NCBI GenBank assembly: GCA_007375595.1
Contig: VMEP01000001.1
Coordinates: 10,061 to 74,060, forward strand
From: Parcubacteria group bacterium LiPW_30
GTDB taxonomy: Bacteria > Patescibacteriota > Minisyncoccia > Phycocordibacterales > VMEP01
Reading direction: 5' to 3'
DNA length: 64,000 nucleotides
A program made the position numbers and the translations under genes. The notes beneath the pieces were generated by a model, which made no database searches, was not told the origin of the DNA, and worked only from the letters and a program-made list of their open reading frames with translations. Positions 1,712-51,937 of this stretch are shown here, piece after piece. Numbering within the stretch: the stretch's first letter is position 1; each line of letters begins with the position of its first letter.

Positions 1712-1907
1712 TGGTGAGTATTCTAGCATTTAGGCCCTTTGTGGGCTAATTGGCCATGATTATAATAATACCTAAGGATTCAAAGAAATGAGTACAGTTC
1801 TAGGAGCGCAAACAAAAAAGAACGAGATGTACTAAGCCGTACATTGAGTGATTTTTTGTGTAGGGCGACAACGAAATGTGCCATTTCTTTTAATCCTTAT
1901 ACAAAAT

Positions 1908-2233: not shown

Positions 2234-3280
2234 TTATTTTTTAAAAAAATTTCCAACAAAACAAACCTCAAATTGAAGCCTTACACCAAAAATTTCAAAA
2301 ACTTTTTCCTGTATTAACGAAGCTAAAGAAAATATTTCATCCGAACTACCACCACTGTAATTAACTAAAACAAGAGCGTGCTTTTCATATATACCAACGC
2401 CACCATGACGTAATCCTTTTTTATTCCCCGCATGTTCAATCAACCAACCTGCAGAAAGTTTTTTTAAATCATTATTATCCGTCGAGAAAACTGGCATATC
2501 AGGATATTTTTCGATTAAATAGTCTGCTTGTTTTTTGTCTACCACAGGATTTTTAAAAAACGAACCAGCTGTCCCGTAAACATTTAAATCTGACAATTTT
2601 AGAGCCCGAACAAGTAAAACGGCGTCGCGTACATCTTTCGCCTTCGCTTCTTCAATGGTGATTCCCCTCTTTAAAAGCTCCTCAGAAATTTCTTTGTGGT
2701 TTATTTGTGTTTGATAATTCTTAGAAAGATTAAATGCAACCTCTGTAATTATTAAATTTTTACCAAAATCTTTTTTAAAAATACTATCTCGATAACCAAA
2801 AACGCATTCATTATTAAAAAATTTTTTATTTTCTTTAGTCTTAATATCAAAAACATCCACCCATTCTATAAACTGTGATATTTCTTTTCCGTAAGCTCCA
2901 ATATTTTGAACAGGAGATGCTCCCACTGTCCCTGGAATACCTGAGAGCAACTCCAAGCCAAAAAAATTATTTTTGATTAAATAATTTACAAAACCATCCC
3001 ATGATTCTCCAGCCGAAGCTTTCGCTATTATTTTTCCATCTTTCTCTTCAATTGAAATACCGCGTAAAGAAATTTTTATTACCAAACCAAAAAATCCATC
3101 GTCAGAAATTAAAACATTAGATCCACCTCCTAAAATATAAATTGGTAATTTATTTTTTTCAGAAAAAGAAATAGCCTCTTTAATATCATCTATTGATTCT
3201 GCTTCGCAAAAATAACGAGCCGTACCTCCAATACGAAAAGTTGTTAAGTCTTTAAGTAAAATATTTTCTTCTATTTTCAT
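2234..3280 (-). CDS. murB: UDP-N-acetylenolpyruvoylglucosamine reductase MurB.
   Basis: MKIEENILLKDLTTFRIGGTARYF...ILGGGSNVL...GLELLSGIPGTVGASPVQNIGAYG, typical FAD-binding MurB motifs. The ORF-track start (3319) runs into a GC-rich structured region encoding an implausible MGAGLAPCG; the start is more likely the ATG at 3280 (MKIEEN) or 3292. Confidence 0.85.
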   Translation of the reverse strand: MKIEENILLKDLTTFRIGGTARYFCEAESIDDIKEAISFSEKNKLPIYILGGGSNVLISDDGFFGLVIKISLRGISIEEKDGKIIAKASAGESWDGFVNYLIKNNFFGLELLSGIPGTVGASPVQNIGAYGKEISQFIEWVDVFDIKTKENKKFFNNECVFGYRDSIFKKDFGKNLIITEVAFNLSKNYQTQINHKEISEELLKRGITIEEAKAKDVRDAVLLVRALKLSDLNVYGTAGSFFKNPVVDKKQADYLIEKYPDMPVFSTDNNDLKKLSAGWLIEHAGNKKGLRHGGVGIYEKHALVLVNYSGGSSDEIFSLASLIQEKVFEIFGVRLQFEVCFVGNFFKK

Positions 3281-3289
3281 AAAAGGTAT

Positions 3290-3990
3290 CATACCGCAGG
3301 GGGCAAGCCCTGCACCCAAAGCGTGTTCGCTTCGCTCACGCTTTGGCGCGGCAAGTCGCGCGGTATTTTAATCCCTTATATTGCTCTCCTCGGCTCGGAA
3401 ATGAGAAAGATTACTTTCTCATTTCACTCGCTCTACGTCGGCAATAAAAAAATTACCCGCAATCTTGGCTGGTAAGTGTTGGCTCCAAAAACAAATGTCT
3501 TATATGAGTGCGTTCACCAGCCAAGGTTACGGGCAACATAAAATAAGTATAGCAGTGGTTTTTATCTTTGTCTTTAAAATGTTTTTTGCACACACTACTA
3601 AAATACACGCGTAAAATTCTGCTGAATTTTCGCTCTGCTCGATTCGTCAATCTGCGCAAGGTATTTTAGTAGTGTGTGCGAGAAGCGGAAATACTTAAAT
3701 GTGCATCTAATTTATCTCTCTAAAGGGTGGGGTGGCAACGCAAACTCACAAGTCAATCCGAATACGGACTGCTCGCGAGCCCACCTCGCCTCCCAGCAAG
3801 AGAAGCCTTGCTGGGGCCCGGCTCCGGTTGTTTTGCGATTCTGCTCTTTCGTAACCAATGCTCCGCATTGGTAAACGAGCAGAAACGCAAAACCCCGCCG
3901 AGGCGGGGGCTTACGCAGACATTCGTGCTTTTAAGAACTAACACAAAAGCACTCATACGAAGATACTATCAGAAATAACTTAAAAAGTCA
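3290..3990. ncRNA. GC-rich (about 50%), hairpin-dense 700-nt non-coding island. Candidate large structured ncRNA and/or cluster of palindromic (MITE-like) elements; class not identified.
   Basis: No credible ORF (only 66-83 aa overlapping frames). Many perfect stems: gcaggg-ggcaag-ccctgc (3296-3313); ccaaagcgtg/cacgctttgg (about 3317-3347); a 12-bp perfect hairpin gaaatgagaaag-atta-ctttctcatttc (about 3400-3427); a 19-20 bp imperfect stem acccgcaatcttggctggtaa/ttcaccagccaaggttacggg (about 3453-3530); a 19-bp perfect inverted repeat gcacacactactaaaatac...gtattttagtagtgtgtgc (about 3577-3690) with a nested hairpin; ccccgcc-ga-ggcgggg at about 3891-3908. Confidence 0.35.
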
Positions 3991-3995
3991 AGTTT

Positions 3996-6365
3996 TTATG
4001 GGTTTCTTCCGGCTTTAATTTCTCTAATATAGTATTCTCCTTGATCTTTAAATTGTGGATTTATCTCAATTATTCTCTCTAGTAGACCGACAGCCTTGAG
4101 CCTATCTCCTATTTGAAGATAAGCTGCTGCAAGGGTTAGAAGGGTCTGTGGATCATTTGGATTGCTATTCAATTTTCTTTCTAGAAGAGAAGCTAATTTG
4201 CCGTAATTACCTGTTGTCGCATAAGCATTAATAAGTCGATTGTCTAAATTGTTATCACCCAAAAGTACCTCTGCTTCATCTACTTTTCCACCATAAATTA
4301 AAGATATCGCATATATAACCCTAGCTTCATTGTATGTCTGATCGCCGTCATAAGCTTTCTTCAAAACTTCAATTGCTTTATCAAACTCTTTTCTGTTTAT
4401 GTAAGCTGTCCCAAGTTCAAATAAAACTTGTTGTTTTTGAGGGGAAAGAGTTTGCGCTTTTTCTAGATACGTCACCGCTTCACTAAACTGAGAATAATTA
4501 TTTAACAAACCACCTAAGAATAACGGATAACGTACATCAAGGGGACTTTCTTCGGACTGCTTAATCATTTCGTTACGAGCTAGATTAACAAATTTTTGTT
4601 TTACTTCTACTGGAACGTTTGCTTGATTAATTTTAAGTGACACTTGTATTAATTGTTCTCGCGCTTCCCCACTTCCGAAAGTGTTGTAAGCAAAAGTCTT
4701 TTCAAAATATTCGAGGTTCTTATTAAAACCGCCTTCTACTTCTGAGTGCGGGGAAATTGCCTGTATCAAAGACATCGACGCAGAAATTGGTTTAATGTTA
4801 GCGAAGTACATAACGAGCACAAACCCAATAAACACGGACGGAACAAAAACATAACTAAGTAAGCTCTCTTCATTTTTTTTGTTTGGAGTAATTTGCTTGT
4901 TTTGAGAATTAAATTCATCTTCCCCAAATACCATCACGTTAATAAAACCAATTAACGAAAAGAATAGTATATAACTCACAAGATTATCAAAAACAAAAAG
5001 ATTGTGAAAAAAATATGCGCCAAACAAACCAGTTAAAATACTTTTCTCTGTAACAGTGAGTGACGAAGTAAGTCTCCACAAAGAGTAGAGAGCCGTAGCA
5101 AACATAGAGAGATACGCGAGAAGACCAAGAAAACCCGCGGCTATCAACCAGTCAAAGAAAACATTATGTGATCGATCAAACCATGGTTCCTGACTCCACA
5201 TTTTAGGATTGTAGTGTTTTGCAAATACGGCGATAAAGTTATCCTGTCCCCAGCCCAACAATGGGTTTTCTTTAACTCCCTGCCAGCTCATATTCCAAAT
5301 CATAGCGCGCGATTTAACTGTTTGTTCGGTAAACGAAATAGTTGAAAACCTGCTCAATACTGGACTATCAATAACGACTTGGGAATCTTTGAGTGCGACA
5401 AAAAGTCCAACAAAAAGCACAATTGTGGCGATTACCCCAACCGCAATATTTTTAACAAATCTGTTTTCGCGATTAAACCAAGCAATTAATAAAGCGGACA
5501 AGGCTGCGCCAGCGATGAGTCCTAAAATAGCCCCACGAGTTGCTGTGTAATAAAGAGCAATTAAATCAAGGACGAAGATGAAACAATAGAGCCCGCGATG
5601 AATTAAAACATTTTCATTTTTCACAAAATACAAATATCCAATTGTTGGTAGGCCAATCATGGAAAGCCCGAGGAGTAATTTTCCATAAAAACCTAAGGAT
5701 GCCGTATCACTTGCGACAATGTTTAAACCAAAAATTGCAAACAAAATAAGCCCGATTACCCATGAGTAAAAAATATCAAAGGAACCCTTTCCTTTATTTC
5801 TTACAAACCAAAAAACCATCAAGAAAATATTTATAAGAAGGAAAACAGCAAAATAAGTGGCGTTGCCTAAGGTTGCATCAGCACGAACACTCCCCTGGTT
5901 TATTGTTAACTCGCCGTGCACTTGCATCACTGAATAAAGGGTAAGGAAAAAATTTACTCCGAACAAAACGTGAAAAAATTTACTCCACAATTTTTCTGTC
6001 ACAACAACAGTCGTCACTACAAAGAAATATGCCACAACATGAAGAAGAGAAATTAACCCTTCCATTCTTTCGTAGTTTGACCAAAAACTGCGATAAGGAT
6101 TTATTCCAAAAATATCAGCAATGGCTACAATCCCAAGAAAAGAACCAACCGCAATCGTTATCCAGTTCTTTTTAGGACGATAGGAGGCATCGTAATAAGA
6201 GAGTAAAAGCCAAGCAGCAAAAATGATTTCAACAATAATACGGAATGTGAAATTTTTCCCTGTTATAAACGGGAAAAATAATGGCGTTGAAATTATAAGC
6301 GGAATAAAAGGAACTAGAAAAATACCGCTAATGATAAGACCTCTTAGAAAATTTTTTGTTAACAT
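3996..6365 (-). CDS. Polytopic membrane protein of the O-antigen ligase/polymerase (Wzy_C-like) type with a C-terminal TPR-repeat domain.
   Basis: 789 aa. The N-terminal two thirds hold about 10-12 hydrophobic helices (e.g. WQGVKENPLLGWGQDNF, a loop typical of Wzy_C). The C-terminal third is TPR-like (AYLQIGDRLKAVGLLERIIEINP, YINRKEFDKAIEVLKKA). This fusion is common in small-genome bacteria. Confidence 0.6.
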   Translation of the reverse strand: MLTKNFLRGLIISGIFLVPFIPLIISTPLFFPFITGKNFTFRIIVEIIFAAWLLLSYYDASYRPKKNWITIAVGSFLGIVAIADIFGINPYRSFWSNYERMEGLISLLHVVAYFFVVTTVVVTEKLWSKFFHVLFGVNFFLTLYSVMQVHGELTINQGSVRADATLGNATYFAVFLLINIFLMVFWFVRNKGKGSFDIFYSWVIGLILFAIFGLNIVASDTASLGFYGKLLLGLSMIGLPTIGYLYFVKNENVLIHRGLYCFIFVLDLIALYYTATRGAILGLIAGAALSALLIAWFNRENRFVKNIAVGVIATIVLFVGLFVALKDSQVVIDSPVLSRFSTISFTEQTVKSRAMIWNMSWQGVKENPLLGWGQDNFIAVFAKHYNPKMWSQEPWFDRSHNVFFDWLIAAGFLGLLAYLSMFATALYSLWRLTSSLTVTEKSILTGLFGAYFFHNLFVFDNLVSYILFFSLIGFINVMVFGEDEFNSQNKQITPNKKNEESLLSYVFVPSVFIGFVLVMYFANIKPISASMSLIQAISPHSEVEGGFNKNLEYFEKTFAYNTFGSGEAREQLIQVSLKINQANVPVEVKQKFVNLARNEMIKQSEESPLDVRYPLFLGGLLNNYSQFSEAVTYLEKAQTLSPQKQQVLFELGTAYINRKEFDKAIEVLKKAYDGDQTYNEARVIYAISLIYGGKVDEAEVLLGDNNLDNRLINAYATTGNYGKLASLLERKLNSNPNDPQTLLTLAAAYLQIGDRLKAVGLLERIIEINPQFKDQGEYYIREIKAGRNP

Positions 6366-6449
6366 GAATTATTTTAAATTATTAATCTGCCTCCTAATTT
6401 ATTCGTTAGATTTTAGCATAATTTTAAACTTTCCCCCCAAAAAGTCGTT

Positions 6450-9400
6450 TTATGGAGCAACGCCATATACCCAATTCAAAACACCATATCTTTGGTGTGG
6501 AGGAGTTGCTGACGTTCCAATGAAAAAATTATTAAAGGCTATTCTTTCTGTAATATTTACCGAACCGCCATTTATAAGTGGATTTTCGTAAATAACAGCA
6601 AAATAATTTTCGCCAGAAACGAAGTTGGTTGGATTTATATTAAACAACTGCCCATATTCAGAATTTGTTCCCATGTCCAACCCATAAATACTAGTTGAAC
6701 TACCAACTACCCCACGATACAAGCCGGCAACCTTATATCCGGTTAGAGAATCTGTCAAAAAGCGACAGTTATAATAAGATGAACCAGAAAGCGCGGGAGT
6801 ATAGTATTCATTCTCCAAAAAACTCGAGGTATAAGAATCACAGTAAAAACCAACACGCCCCATACTTATGCTATTTCGCGCTTTTGGTGTTCCATTAATA
6901 GCATTTCCATCTTTGTCGTGTCCGGTCAAATAAGACCCATCGTTTTGTCCCCAATTATTTTTATCACTTCCAATAGTGTCAGAAGGTTTTCTTTCCATCG
7001 TTTTGTAATCAGGAGAAGATCCACCACCACACCAACCACCGCATTCTGATAAAATTGGTGTTTGGTCGACAGTTGAAGTTGACACGCCACCACCAAAAAT
7101 TAAACTCAAAACTTCGCCGTCGTTTGAAAGACCGGCGCCACCACTTAACCCACTAAAAGGAACAGCTAAATCAACTACAACATCTGAAAATATATCTCCA
7201 GAAGCGCCACGTCCAATCAAAAAATATCCATTGGGTGGAATGGTACCAGAAAGCGGAATATGCGGAGTGCCGTCTTCGGCGGATATATAAAGTCCTGATA
7301 AATTAAGTGAGTAGATAGTTCTATTTTTTAGTTCAATCCATTCAGCATAAGGTGAAGCTATATTCCCTGCCCACGCAACTTCGTTGATAATTATCGGCAT
7401 ATGACTTGCCGTGAAGTAAGTTGTATTGCCACTGGTTGAAAGATCACTGTTTCCAAAAATACTAACAGCAACAACTTTCAAGTCATATGGCCCTTCTGTG
7501 GTTGGAACAACAACAGAAGTCTCACTTGTTGTTGCAATAGTTGAAAACCCTGTCAAATTTGTTCCTTTAATTATTTCAAAATAACTGTAATTGGGTGTAT
7601 TAACTGACCAAGAAATGGTAGCTTGCCCAGCTGGAATAAAACACGACTGCGGTGGTGACTGCAAAGAATAAGCACACTCAGCAACACTCACTCCTGTTGC
7701 TCTAGGCTGTACCGTGTAAACATTAAAAACGGCGTCGCTTGAATCGGAGATGTTGTTGTTTTGATCAACAACAAAAAATTTTATTGTTGTTGTCCCTTCC
7801 GGTAAATCAGAAAATGGAATTGACCACACAGTGGAGGAAGCTATCACCGTGGTCACGCTATTAAAATTATTCGTTACCGTAAATCCTGGTGTTGCAGTCC
7901 CGGAAAAAGTAACAGACTTTTCCCGAAGCTGTAGTGGAAAGGTGTGTGAAGTAATCGCGGGTGGCGAGACGACAGGAATATCAACCGTTAATGTAACTTC
8001 TTGTTGACCAATATTTTCATTACCCAAAACTCTCGCAAAAAATTGTATCGTGCTCGCCCCTTGTGGAAAGAGAGATACAGAGAATGACCAATTCCCTTCT
8101 CCTGAAGAGGTCGTGGTAGCTTGCGAAAAAGAATTTGAGATAACTGCGCCAGGAGTCGAGGTGCCAGAGAATATTATCGTTGTCGTTGCGAACGTTTGAG
8201 AAAAATCAACTGGTGATGTTACGGAAATTAAAACTTGTTCTGGTTCGCTTGAGACATCGGCGACATTAAGCGTCTCCTCAACAGAAGATGTTTGTGTTTG
8301 TTCTTGTGTTTGTGTTACAGCGGGCGCACTACCGCCACCAAACCCAGGAGAAAAACCACTACCAAAATTTATCTTTGGTTCTGAAATATTATTTACAGCT
8401 GGCTCTGGTGCGGTTGTTTCTTTCGCAATTATTGTATTTACTACTGATTCTGTTGGGTTACCCTCATTCTGCGCTTCGCCTTGAGACACCACTTCCGTTT
8501 GTTGAATCGTTTGATTTGATTCGGCAATTACAACAGGAGTATTTTGATTAGTAGTTTTTATTTGTGTTTGTGTTTGTCCGTTTGTACTACTATTTTCTGT
8601 AGCTAAAACTACTGCCGCGCCACTATTTGAGTTACTAAAAGCAAAATTGGTAACAACCTGTATACCAGACCCAATAGCCGAAGCAATATTTTTTGTCGCG
8701 CCATAAACACCGCTCGCTACCGCAAGCGTCCCGTCTAATGTAGTTTCCGCTACTGGATCGACAACGGCAAAAATCGCACCCTCGACCTTATGCGCGGTAG
8801 TAAGTTTCGGTGGCGCAATACAAGGTAAATTTTCACTATTATTAGCCTTCAAATTATCGAGTGATCCTTTAATATCGGAAACAATTTGATTGGCGCGATA
8901 TTTTATATAAACATCTGAAAAATTATGTCCAAGTTTATCATCCCCTTCTTTTAATTCGATGTTCGTGTTTGCTGGCATAATTTTCCTAAACGGCACGCTA
9001 GCGACAAAATCAGAAATAACTTTATCGGTACTTGAGGTAAGCCACTTTCCACCGCCCGCAACGCGACTAGCTGGAGTGGCAACGGAATAAACAGCAATAG
9101 AGTTTGCAGAAGCATTTTCTTGATTCCCGTAAACTTTGTCGTGAAAACTGTTAGCGTAAAAATTGCCCTGTGAATGGGCAACGAGGAGCACTTTTTTAGT
9201 TTTAACTTTTTCACTGGCCGATTGAAGCATTTCAACCAGATCGTAATCTTCTACTGTTTCTTCATCAAAAACTTTTTGATATAGAGCCTTTAACCCATCA
9301 CCAATGCCAGCGAGGTGGGAGGGATTGTGAAGATAATCTACGATTAGCGGTTCATTGTTGTGAGTTGCCCGCAATCTACTTTTTAATCTATCTTTATTCT

Positions 9401-10215: not shown

Positions 10216-10294
10216 ATTTTAACAAACACTGCTCAAACTTTCCCCTCTTCCACAGCAAATCTGTGGATAACTCCCTTCTTATCATTTTCCCCTG

Positions 10295-40398: not shown

Positions 40399-40450
40399 AG
40401 TATGCGCTTTACTTTATCAAAAATTAAGATAATTACTACCTATAACAACA

Positions 40451-40492
40451 GAAAAGGGGCTAGCGTGACAACGCTTAGCCCCTTTCTTTTTT
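40451..40492 (-). terminator. Intrinsic terminator downstream of the 81-aa GC-rich ORF (structure also plausible on the + strand).
   Basis: ggggctagcgtgacaacgcttagcccc (40457-40483) flanked by T runs on both strands. Confidence 0.6.
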
Positions 40493-40496
40493 GGCA

Positions 40497-40742
40497 CTAC
40501 TCGGCCAACGACGACTCGGCTGTTTGTGGCGCCTTGTCATGGCCGTGCTTGTGGCGCCATGCATCTTGGTCGGTTGCATAAAGCTGCCCATCCTCGATTG
40601 CTTCGTGAAATGCCCGTGCGGCCATTTCTCCAGCTTCGTCGTTCGTAAACGCTACCGTCACGACCCATGGGCAGGAACCGTTTCTTTTCTGCTCCACCGT
40701 CGCTTTGGTGAAATTGCGAAGACCAACAACTGATGTCACCAT
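40497..40742 (-). CDS. Hypothetical 81-aa protein encoded in a GC-rich (about 55%) islet; probable horizontally acquired gene.
   Basis: MVTSVVGLRNFTKATVEQKRNGSCPWVVTVAFTNDEAGEMAARAFHEAIEDGQLYATDQDAWRHKHGHDKAPQTAESSLAE; strong SD AAGGAGGAAGTTCATCATG; terminator directly downstream; local GC far above the backbone. Confidence 0.5.
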   Translation of the reverse strand: MVTSVVGLRNFTKATVEQKRNGSCPWVVTVAFTNDEAGEMAARAFHEAIEDGQLYATDQDAWRHKHGHDKAPQTAESSLAE

Positions 40743-40785
40743 GATGAACTTCCTCCTTGTGAACTTGCTGCTTGATAAACTAACA

Positions 40786-51088: not shown

Positions 51089-51160
51089 TGCGAGTGGAAG
51101 GAATCGGACCTTCGACCTCTGTCTTATCAGGACAGCGTTCTACCACTGAACTACACTCGC
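51089..51160 (-). tRNA. tRNA-Ile (anticodon GAU).
   Basis: Minus strand GCGAGTG-TA-GTTC-AGTGGTA-GAAC-G-CTGTC-CTGATAA-GACAG-AGGTC-GAAGG-TCCGATT-CCTTC-CACTCGC-A; cloverleaf with 7-bp acceptor, U33, anticodon GAT; CCA not encoded. Confidence 0.85.
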
Positions 51161-51234
51161 AAGGGAAAAGTAACGACGAAACTATAACAAAAAGCGCGGT
51201 TATGGGCAACAAAATCTTTTTTTAAACAAACATA

Positions 51235-51272
51235 CTAAAAATTAAAAGCCGCCCCGGTGAAACCGGGACGGC
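51235..51272 (-). terminator. Intrinsic terminator (minus strand) after the 73-aa ORF.
   Basis: gccgccccgg-tgaaa-ccgggacggc imperfect stem; followed on the minus strand by UUUUAAUUUUU. Confidence 0.5.
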
Positions 51273-51286
51273 TTTGTTCTGGTCTT

Positions 51287-51508
51287 TCACCAGTGTACGT
51301 GCAGTATGCTCGCCAACTTGAACGGGGCGAGCCAGAACCAAGCAAGCGGTACGTACTCCCCATTCAGCGCATTGAAGAAAGCCAAAGTGCTGAACGTCAT
51401 GTAAAAAAGAAGCAATACCGCCGTCGCCCCCCAGAAATACTCGGAGGCAGTGCCGTTATTTTCCGGCCGAAAAACGATATCCTTCACATCTCTGCCGAAG
51501 TACAGCAT
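51287..51508 (-). CDS. Small membrane protein (2 TM), hypothetical, in the GC-rich islet next to tRNA-Ile.
   Basis: SD AAGGAGAGGATCATG; ...WGATAVLLLFYMTFSTLAFF...WFWLAPFKLASIL; terminator downstream. Confidence 0.45.
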   Translation of the reverse strand: MLYFGRDVKDIVFRPENNGTASEYFWGATAVLLLFYMTFSTLAFFNALNGEYVPLAWFWLAPFKLASILHVHW

Positions 51509-51584
51509 GATCCTCTCCTTGAGTTATGATACTGATTTGCCTGACTAATTCACATACCGCAGAGCTGGGGCGAATTCAAATTAC

Positions 51585-51749
51585 TTACCCCATCCACAAA
51601 ACGAACAACGTCAGCAAGACAACGACTCCGGTAACAATCGCCACCAAACTAAAATGCCTTTCCCTCTCGTGTAATTCAGGCGATACCGGATCATAGAAAC
51701 GAGGAGGGACCTTGTGCGCTCTCATTTGCCACCACTCATGTGATTTCAT
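51585..51749 (-). CDS. Small (54 aa) membrane protein with a C-terminal TM, hypothetical, in the GC-rich islet.
   Basis: SD CGGAGGTTGAAACCATG; MKSHEWWQMRAHKVPPRFYDPVSPELHERERHFSLVAIVTGVVVLLTLFVLWMG. Confidence 0.4.
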   Translation of the reverse strand: MKSHEWWQMRAHKVPPRFYDPVSPELHERERHFSLVAIVTGVVVLLTLFVLWMG

Positions 51750-51937
51750 GGTTTCAACCTCCGAAACGAGTGTTGTGATTCACAAAGAACCTCTCAGTTT
51801 GTTATCCTAACTCCTATTGAATCACACAATGGCTTAAAAGTCAATACCCCGTACTAGAACAAAGTTCAGTACGGGGTAAGCCTAAAATAATCGCTTTTTG
51901 AGCTACATTATTTTTTTGTTTCTCTCGCTCTCTCTAC

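Follow-up and report, generated by a model that had tools for sequence, protein, structure and literature searches.

A candidate cluster of small structured RNA elements upstream of murB in Patescibacteria

Introduction

What is encoded in a conserved gap that holds no gene? In the present study, we analyzed a gap of ~700 nt (positions 3281-3995) between murB and a gene for a Wzy_C/TPR membrane protein in a groundwater genome of Patescibacteria (Candidate Phyla Radiation; CPR). The window is the whole stretch of DNA that was analyzed, which is 64 kb of this genome, and searches within the genome cover those 64 kb. Both flanking genes are on the minus strand. An earlier note on this DNA described the gap as free of open reading frames (ORFs), G+C-rich and saturated with hairpins, and proposed a large structured RNA or a nest of palindromic elements. 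CPR bacteria have tiny genomes with few recognizable regulators. To our knowledge, almost nothing is known about their regulatory RNAs. Literature searches on small RNAs (sRNAs) of Patescibacteria or Saccharibacteria found no description of this locus.

Our analysis suggests that the locus consists of small structured RNA elements in a lineage-specific cluster, which is read on the minus strand like both flanking genes. Its RNA families are new and absent from Rfam. Within ~700 nt, two non-coding modules, designated A and B, are kept more strictly than the neighboring essential genes.

Results

Conservation and strand of the gap

Thirteen related loci with the element were recovered from Patescibacteria metagenomes, starting from MurB and Wzy homologues. 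The related loci include a metagenome-assembled genome from GTDB labelled Ca. Saccharibacteria (L001) and ENA, JGI and Logan contigs, some of which are from groundwater samples (L003-L006, L009-L012 and L017-L019; L011 and L012 derive from Hainich samples). One further murB-linked contig, from JGI (L013), came from a DNA-pattern scan for the core of hairpin H3 (Table 1). The sole distant homologue is L020, the Wzy protein of which is only 50% identical. Only six to nine distinct sequences were available per module.

The gene order Wzy_C/TPR, gap, murB, secA was kept in the murB-linked loci wherever the neighboring genes were in view, and the position of the gap was syntenic across lineages with only 66% MurB identity. 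The more distant relatives L008 (56% MurB identity), L021 and L023 (~49% Wzy identity) lack the element; it was not seen in L024 (~49% Wzy identity), but this contig ends ~190 nt past the gene. Therefore, the element is confined to a narrow lineage of Patescibacteria. The metagenome scan with the H3 core returned one real locus (L013) and three chance matches in high-GC contigs. Since it missed the JGI contigs of L006 and L017 despite the presence of the pattern, the scanned collection is incomplete for this lineage. Two scans of viral contigs returned no match.

Module A is 97-100% identical to its relatives and module B 93.5-98%, whereas the Wzy gene and murB of the same relatives are 72-85% and 71-92% identical, respectively. 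Conservation above the level of the coding flanks indicates strong purifying selection on non-coding sequence. Compared with 200 dinucleotide shuffles, the minus strand folded with z values between -5.9 and -7.1 in four sub-regions (3725-3957, -6.9; 3440-3545, -6.3; 3555-3745, -7.1; 3281-3450, -5.9). The fold energies of the minus strand were lower than those of the plus strand (-118.3 vs -103.3 and -40.1 vs -32.3 kcal/mol). G.U pairs in the stem of module B and in a repeated unit (see below) fit the minus strand only and become A.C mismatches on the plus strand. The covariance models R1 (module B) and R2 (unit) scored 121.7 and 176 bits on the minus strand, against 39 and 36 on the plus strand. 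These results place the RNA on the minus strand. The locus also contains two promoter-like sites and several intrinsic-terminator-like hairpins. Predicted sites of both kinds are conserved for A and for B.

The hairpin-saturated, ORF-free gap of the earlier note was thus borne out, and all of the stems that it named were found where it had placed them. A G+C content of about 50% applies only to local 200-nt peaks (0.46-0.55, with a dip to 0.37); the value for 3280-4010 is 45.6%, compared with 36.6% for the window. The 12-bp perfect hairpin is located at 3398-3409/3414-3425. The arms of the 19-bp perfect inverted repeat (3588-3606/3661-3679) are separated by 54 nt, and the imperfect stem of ~20 bp is a 21-bp stem (86%; 3453-3473/3516-3536) with 42 nt between its arms. 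Compensatory pairs in the stem of module B (7) and in the unit (10) provide real covariation for a conserved, structured non-coding sequence.

Several ORFs of 40-83 codons overlap the gap. None has a significant Pfam match; a single sub-threshold match (E 0.006) was below the family cut-off. Both of the same-strand ORFs that were followed in relatives failed: an ORF of 67 amino acids shrinks to 38, 36, 14 and 5 codons, and a 28-codon frame in module B has ACG in place of ATG in one lineage. These small ORFs are not real genes, as the earlier note had judged. A coding function of module A was ruled out by 1-nt indels and early stops in relatives.

Module A

Module A is a candidate sRNA that starts directly after the Wzy_C/TPR gene. 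Its promoter-like site, P_A, is also present in L003 and L006. Both hexamers are invariant in the murB-linked relatives, and the spacer and the 6-7 nt past the -10 box vary. Conservation resumes at AUGAGUGC, after this variable stretch. The predicted intrinsic terminator of module A consists of a G+C-rich hairpin followed by a U-run on the transcribed strand; it is predicted in the window, L003, L006 and L020, with a different loop in L020. Module A of L020 keeps the seed and the terminator, and a different hairpin replaces hairpin 1. Within the 64-kb window, we found no mRNA targets for the seed of module A or the loop of module B.

Module B and the murB leader

Module B is a long hairpin preceded by the promoter-like site P_B. 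The TATACT box of P_B is invariant in the murB-linked loci and reads TATAAT in L020. The 23-bp stem is 97.3% paired in the alignment, with 7 compensatory pairs and 5 G.U pairs, and none of 500 shuffles was as good. Its 42-nt loop is nearly invariant, L020 included. In seven loci (L003, L004, L005, L006, L009, L013 and L017), the murB ATG is only 6-12 nt past the hairpin; therefore, module B must be the murB 5' leader in these loci. No room is left there for a promoter between module B and the ATG.

The murB start in the window is probably the ATG at 3280 (MKIEE), which matches the starts in relatives. Gene callers assign 352 amino acids to MurB of window-type strains (start MIPFMKIE at 3292), and 345-348 amino acids with a start at MKIE to other lineages. 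Since a predicted helix covers the four extra codons, which are part of the strain-specific insertion described below, the start at 3280 is more likely.

We also noted an additional, partial module B in L020 (5840-5900), just upstream of the full copy. It comprises the 5' arm and the beginning of the loop and has a separate promoter-like box, TGTTATAAT. In both L020 and L021, Wzy is preceded by an AbiEii gene.

Complementarity between modules A and B

An inverted-repeat search linked A and B by two short inverted matches. In RNAduplex, positions 12-50 of A are colinearly complementary to the whole loop of B (31 bp, -30.9 kcal/mol). The helices are GUGUU:AACAC, GUUC:GAGC, UAAAAGCA:UGUUUUUG, AAUGUC:GACAUU, UGCGU:ACGCA and GCC:GGU. 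The duplex is imperfect; its 31 bp include 4 G.U pairs and it contains bulges. The bulged CUCAU of B matches AUGAG at the 5' end of A. Only 5 of 1000 shuffles of the loop reached this duplex energy.

Two lineages, L005 and L020, are informative for covariation between the modules. Module A of L005 has lost one A, with a matching U-to-G change in its B; in L020, an A-to-G change in module A corresponds to a U-to-C change within the CUCAU of B. The predicted duplex energy was -16.2 kcal/mol for A and B of the window, -19.6 for A and B of L005, and -12.0 for A and B of L020. Mixed pairs with L005 reached -15.8 (window A, L005 B) and -16.2 (L005 A, window B), and those with L020 reached -6.5 (window A, L020 B) and -9.9 (L020 A, window B). 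In both informative lineages, matched pairs are thus predicted to bind better than mismatched pairs. The two modules co-occur even in L020.

After subtraction of the opening costs, each of the three sub-contacts remained favorable, at -4.9 (loop-loop), -2.9 (seed) and -6.0 kcal/mol (5' end), with hairpin 1 not fully melted. RNAcofold of A and B returned no intermolecular pairs, which is uninformative because the method cannot represent loop-loop contacts. We consider a contact between A and B to be plausible, with roughly even odds.

The 147-nt unit between A and B

A repeat unit of three hairpins, H1-H2-H3, follows module A. Nine distinct copies were aligned: 96.1% of the cells were paired, with 10 compensatory pairs. 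None of 500 shuffles was as good, and slid controls reached 34-43%. Five invariant G.U pairs of H3 fit the minus strand only. One copy is present in the window, L001, L012, L006, L013 and L017, and two tandem copies in L003, L011 and L018; the copy in L005 is degenerate. Copy 2 in L003 carries an internal terminator. The duplicates in L011 are identical, a pattern more suggestive of recent unequal crossing-over than of tandem sensors under selection.

Each terminator-like hairpin has a U-tract that also serves as the 5' arm of the H1 that follows, and this pairing covaries. Between A and B of L003, seven terminator-like hairpins were found on the same strand, against 1.4 expected. The complementarity of the unit or of the AGCA hairpin (Table 1) to A or B was no better than that of shuffles.

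On the strand opposite the RNA elements of L011, a 172-amino acid "gene" was called across the duplicated units (4282-4800, minus strand of the locus), with no Pfam match on record. It is probably an artefact of stop-free repeats.

The mosaic spacer and the strain-specific insertion

The remainder of the gap changes rapidly. Between strains that share 99-100% identity in the flanking proteins, the number of units, the spacer and the insertions differ. The mosaic spacer of the window is 93% identical to that of L013/L017, yet it is absent from the closest strain, L011, the Wzy and MurB proteins of which are 100 and 99% identical to those of the window. The UUC-AGCA-GAA hairpin recurs with different A/U stems in L004, L005, L006, L009, L018 and L020. 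An insertion of 165 nt separates module B from the murB ATG only in the window, L001, L011 and L012, with ~96% identity. Its three GC-rich hairpins are closed by a predicted helix that covers the upstream ATG at 3292. Substitutions between strains break its pairs and are not compensatory. The term nest of palindromic elements, used in the earlier note, is fair for this insertion and the mosaic spacer, and only for those parts.

L003 and L004/L018 share an identical MurB protein (P0002), and the stretch between the units and module B is completely different. In L003 it is an A+T-rich segment with a 58-amino acid ORF called on the opposite strand, and in L004 and L018 it consists of GC-rich hairpins and the AGCA hairpin. 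This combination indicates replacement of the spacer at the strain level.

Table 1. Positions of the elements in the gap and of the flanking genes (window coordinates)
Feature	Position	Strand	Description
Wzy_C (O-antigen-ligase-like) + TPR membrane protein gene	3996-6365	minus	Upstream gene; Pfam
Promoter-like site P_A	3963-3991	minus	TTGACT, 17 nt, TG-TAGTAT; consensus scan; directly after the Wzy_C/TPR stop codon
Module A, candidate sRNA	3883-3956	minus	~74 nt; 5' AUGAGUGC, hairpin 1, single-stranded CGAAUGUCU, terminator
Module A hairpin 1	3925-3952	minus	Predicted
Module A single-stranded CGAAUGUCU ("seed")	about 3917-3925	minus	Predicted
Module A intrinsic terminator	3908-3883 (hairpin + U-tract 3883-3909)	minus	Predicted; CCCCGCC-UCG-GCGGGG + UUUUGCGUUU
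Repeat unit H1-H2-H3	3737-3892	minus	Period ~147 nt; one copy in the window
H1	3831-3892	minus	Long variable hairpin
H2	3783-3828	minus	Hairpin with basal helix
H3	3742-3782	minus	15-18-bp hairpin, then UUUGCGUU
Mosaic spacer	3581-3736	minus	Holds the 19-bp-stem hairpin 3588-3679
Small conserved hairpin	3611-3631	minus	Loop AGCA; enclosed by the 19-bp-stem hairpin
Promoter-like site P_B	3546-3574 (-10 box TGnTATACT 3554-3546)	minus	AAGACA, 17 nt, TG-TATACT; consensus scan
Module B, murB leader hairpin	3446-3539	minus	~93 nt; 23-bp stem, 42-nt loop, U7
Module B parts	5' arm 3514-3537; apical loop 3476-3513; 3' arm 3453-3475	minus	U7 follows the 3' arm
Strain-specific insertion	3281-3445	minus	165 nt, between module B and the murB ATG; 12-bp perfect hairpin + three GC-rich hairpins
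Further stems	3830-3849/3874-3893; 3792-3800/3807-3815; 3316-3325/3337-3346; 3893-3908
murB (UDP-N-acetylenolpyruvoylglucosamine reductase)	2234-3280/3292	minus	Downstream gene; Pfam MurB_C + FAD_binding_4

Searches for known RNA families and repeats

Rfam 15 at the gathering score identified only two tRNAs in the whole 64-kb window, both elsewhere. At E<=10, both strands of 3150-4150 gave nothing meaningful, with only chance miRNA or terminator-like matches, and seven homologous loci gave no real match at E<=1. The scan of both strands for which the earlier note had called thus yielded no real match to the region. No Rfam covariance model matched for RNase P, tmRNA, 6S, SRP, OLE, GOLLD, ROOL, HEARO, raiA, T-box or riboswitch families, and we rejected these candidates. 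ARAGORN detected no tmRNA in the window, only two tRNAs elsewhere. The divergent RNase P that the earlier note had considered receives no support at any of these Rfam thresholds. The weak P4-like pairing of CGUAACC with GGCUUACG had been read on the plus strand, whereas the RNA strand is minus; its two sides correspond to part of hairpin H1 and to the antisense of the single-stranded region of module A.

When the region was compared with the 64 kb by BLAST, it matched only itself and its own inverted repeats. Models R1 and R2 detected no other copy in the window and 17 related loci (184 kb in all). A simple family of recurring inverted repeats, which the earlier note had considered, is not what the searched DNA holds, since it contains no second copy. 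We rejected a dispersed repeat (REP/BIME, BOX or MITE) because self-BLAST and R1/R2 found no scattered copies in 64 kb of the genome, although low copy numbers may occur elsewhere. No similarity between the gap and the neighboring genes was found that would correspond to the template and variable repeats of diversity-generating retroelements. The alignments show no direct repeat on either side of the locus, and module A and the B loop, which are imperfectly complementary, are internal to conserved modules that resemble transcription units.

Other features of the neighborhood and the window

The murB-secA gap contains a conserved 24-codon ORF, MAAKKKKAAAKKKPAKKAKKAKRS (2031-1957, minus strand). 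A promoter-like site (TTGCAT-17-TATGATAAT; 2162-2134) and a leader of ~100 nt with a long hairpin (2133-2032) are located upstream of it, and a clean predicted terminator follows (1935-1903). ORF, promoter-like site, leader and terminator are conserved in L003, L005, L006, L009 and L011. A long-stem inverted-repeat element of 121 nt (1776-1896, minus strand; predicted minimum free energy, -31.6 kcal/mol) lies between that terminator and the secA promoter. It is present in two tandem copies in L005 (about 6380-6590) and is much diverged in L006 and L009; it is a second copy-variable structured element in the murB neighborhood.

Two perfect DnaA-box-like 9-mers, TTATCCACA, were found on the minus strand (2181-2189 and 10262-10270). 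At least two occurred in 12 of 100 shuffles, and their number is not significant by itself. The one at 2181-2189, just downstream of murB, is conserved in relatives. A crude 100-codon ORF filter flagged two further gaps, 40414-40785 (G+C 0.49) and 51124-51937 (0.45). These appear to encode short proteins on the minus strand, with Shine-Dalgarno sites (for example, AAGGAGGAAGTTCATCATG near 40745), rather than structured RNA.

Discussion

The conservation, strand, secondary structures, synteny and complementarity described above are shown by the analysis. We infer from them that the modules are transcribed, that A and B make contact in vivo and that this contact affects murB. We tentatively favor a reading in which sRNA A acts on the murB leader B, while the variable hairpin stretch between them limits or tunes read-through; we place it a little short of an even chance. 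Module A (~74 nt) would be produced from its own promoter after the Wzy_C/TPR gene, perhaps also as the 3' end of that gene, and its transcript would stop at the intrinsic terminator. The leader would run from the second promoter through the 23-bp hairpin to the U-run beside the murB start codon. The loop of hairpin 1, the single-stranded CGAAUGUCU and the 5' end of A are complementary to neighboring parts of the B loop, and A may dock on the nascent or finished leader by a multi-site, kissing-type contact. Docking may change termination at the leader hairpin, or the stability or translation of the murB message. The circuit would link a cell-surface glycan gene to the synthesis of peptidoglycan precursors. 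The stretch from A to B, with one or two units that each end in a terminator-like hairpin and with hairpins that differ between strains, would limit or tune read-through from A to B. Since terminator-like hairpins are combined with fast duplication, decay and replacement, we read this stretch as an adjustable insulator or attenuator stack, which is the weakest part of the proposal.

Several observations weigh against this reading. The binding site of A is the loop and not the terminator stem; therefore, an effect on termination is conjecture. Among 32,000 windows in the 64 kb, ~20 reach the raw duplex energy of module B with A, and the match is unusual but not unique against the natural background. 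Once opening costs are included, the full duplex retains only -3 to -6 kcal/mol and becomes unfavorable (+5) in L020. The covariation between A and B rests on only two informative lineages. Module B of L020 has no U-run, and murB is not seen adjoining it in the available sequence, which indicates that the terminator and the link to murB are not universal. The putative role of the unit in the circuit is weakened by the decay of H3 and part of H2 in some lineages (L005 and copy 2 of L003). We also considered a broader version, an RNA-only circuit specific to Patescibacteria, in which a co-evolving sRNA A sets termination or translation through the B loop and a new class of 147-nt structured unit tunes the coupling by its strain-variable copy number, or senses a signal. 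This version is unlikely. If true, it would rank with the first sRNA-target pairs and novel classes of cis-regulatory RNA described for CPR bacteria.

The same complementarity may be intramolecular. A single long structured RNA, or a long murB leader running from P_A through murB, would let A and the B loop close a large domain around variable inner hairpins. All parts are on one strand with no gene between them, and the covarying pairing of a terminator U-tract with the 5' arm of the next H1 can form only in read-through transcripts. However, a strong GC terminator follows A, one to three more terminator-like hairpins precede B, and B has its own conserved -10 box. The copy number and content of the interior also differ between near-identical strains, unlike the core of a folded large RNA, and no large-RNA family of Rfam matched. 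For the same reasons, the earlier suggestion of one large ornate RNA of the OLE/GOLLD/ROOL type does not hold, and we regard a long RNA as improbable. We give no more credit to the view that B is a self-contained attenuator or riboswitch-like leader, the loop of which binds a protein or ligand, with A being an unrelated sRNA or the Wzy 3' end and the complementarity incidental. The position of the hairpin and U-run directly before the murB ATG in seven loci, conservation of the loop far beyond the need of pairing with A alone, and the modest net binding energy are all consistent with it. The superiority of matched over mismatched pairs in both informative lineages is not, nor is the co-occurrence of A and B in L020, where no murB adjoins in the available sequence. 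Moreover, no covariation or known aptamer was found within the loop, and Rfam returned none.

Selection may instead act on the DNA, or the arrangement may be incidental: a terminator stack after the Wzy gene, a murB promoter and a MITE/BOX-like pile-up of palindromes at a recombination hot spot. The strain-level differences between loci with nearly identical flanking proteins and the non-compensatory changes in the insertion fit such a pile-up, and pneumococcal BOX elements have a layout reminiscent of A-(unit)n-B with its complementary ends. We nevertheless consider it more doubtful still, since no second copy of a module occurs in 64 kb or ~120 kb of related loci, A and B surpass their coding flanks in conservation, strand-specific compensatory pairs with G.U point to selection on RNA, and the position is syntenic between distant MurB lineages. 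The 147-nt units are very unlikely to be tandem riboswitch- or T-box-like attenuators that respond to a ligand or tRNA and control read-through toward murB. A hairpin with a U-rich tail stands at the end of each unit and tandem copies occur, GGUGG-GCU-CGCG resembles a T-box sequence, and an alternative hairpin, GCGAG/CUCGC, seen in the sequence, competes with the base of H3. Against this, Rfam T-box and riboswitch models were unmatched even at E<=10, H1 has no distal Stem I motifs, and the downstream gene is murB rather than an aminoacyl-tRNA synthetase or amino-acid gene. In some lineages, the units are also dispensable or decayed, and the identical duplicates in L011 suggest a recent origin by unequal crossing-over. 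A divergent housekeeping RNA (RNase P, tmRNA, SRP RNA or 6S) would account for the high G+C content, dense structure and very high conservation, and small protein genes for the 40-83-codon ORFs. The modular, copy-variable layout does not suit the former, which neither Rfam at any threshold nor ARAGORN detected, and the latter have no significant Pfam match and were broken in both cases followed. The probability of either is close to nil.

If the pairing of A with B is confirmed, the locus will provide new RNA families for Patescibacteria, a concrete case in which to test whether RNA controls the synthesis of peptidoglycan precursors in an episymbiont lineage, and an example of a regulatory RNA locus with a middle remodelled at the strain level. 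If the pairing is incidental, the contribution of the locus is several well-supported RNA motifs that are missing from current databases.

Comparison with known systems

TIGR arrays (TIGR-Tas) also occur in CPR bacteria and have a 36-nt period that contains two repeats of 8-12 nt and two spacers of ~9 nt; they usually comprise 5-15 copies beside a Nop-domain tas gene (PMC12045711). The present locus shares with them tandem structured RNA units in a Patescibacteria genome; however, its period is 147 nt, its copies number one or two and its neighbors are Wzy_C/TPR and murB, which excludes a TIGR array. Compared by eye with integron attC sites (R''(RYYYAAC)...R'(GTTRRRY)), H1 reads GTTTTGCG...CGCAAAAC, with the core sites in reverse order, and the units are free of ORFs.

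Large ornate RNAs (OLE, GOLLD, ROOL, HEARO and raiA) resemble the locus as long, G+C-rich, hairpin-dense, ORF-free stretches in an A+T-rich genome. The locus differs in its promoter-like sites and terminators, in conservation concentrated in two short end modules and in an interior without a single fold. Tandem riboswitches and T-box leaders likewise comprise repeated, terminator-ended units upstream of a biosynthetic gene, and the GGUGG...CGCG motif is similar. However, Rfam gave no match, the units vary between near-identical strains and decay, and the class of gene is atypical.

Pneumococcal BOX elements have the structure boxA-(boxB)n-boxC, and REP/BIME elements and MITEs are likewise intergenic repeats. 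As hairpin-rich intergenic composites with complementary end modules and a copy-variable middle, BOX elements are the closest look-alike in layout. In contrast, the present element is found at one syntenic position and nowhere else in the searched DNA, its ends are more conserved than the neighboring genes, and neither target-site duplications nor terminal inverted repeats are apparent at its borders.

Kissing-loop antisense systems include CopA/CopT of plasmid R1, Inc RNA/repZ, and the countertranscript-driven attenuation of pT181 and pIP501, in which the read-out is transcription termination in the leader. As in these systems, the loop of a candidate small hairpin RNA with a terminator, together with a single-stranded segment beside it, is complementary to the apical loop of a hairpin in the leader immediately before the gene that would be regulated. 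However, A and B are in tandem on the same strand, ~400 nt apart. Since they are not overlapping antisense genes, their complementarity is imperfect. The locus is also chromosomal, and its target would be the housekeeping gene murB.

Enterobacteria possess sRNAs derived from 3' untranslated regions (UTRs) and sRNA/sponge pairs, such as CpxQ and SroC-GcvB. Module A similarly starts right after a stop codon, shares the terminator of the gene and has a short single-stranded seed, and a second conserved RNA, B, carries the matching sequence. In contrast to these pairs, no mRNA target was found in 64 kb, and we know of no Hfq- or ProQ-type context in these organisms. The closest functional analogues of the locus are kissing-loop antisense regulators and 3'-UTR sRNAs, and it is a member of none of the systems compared.

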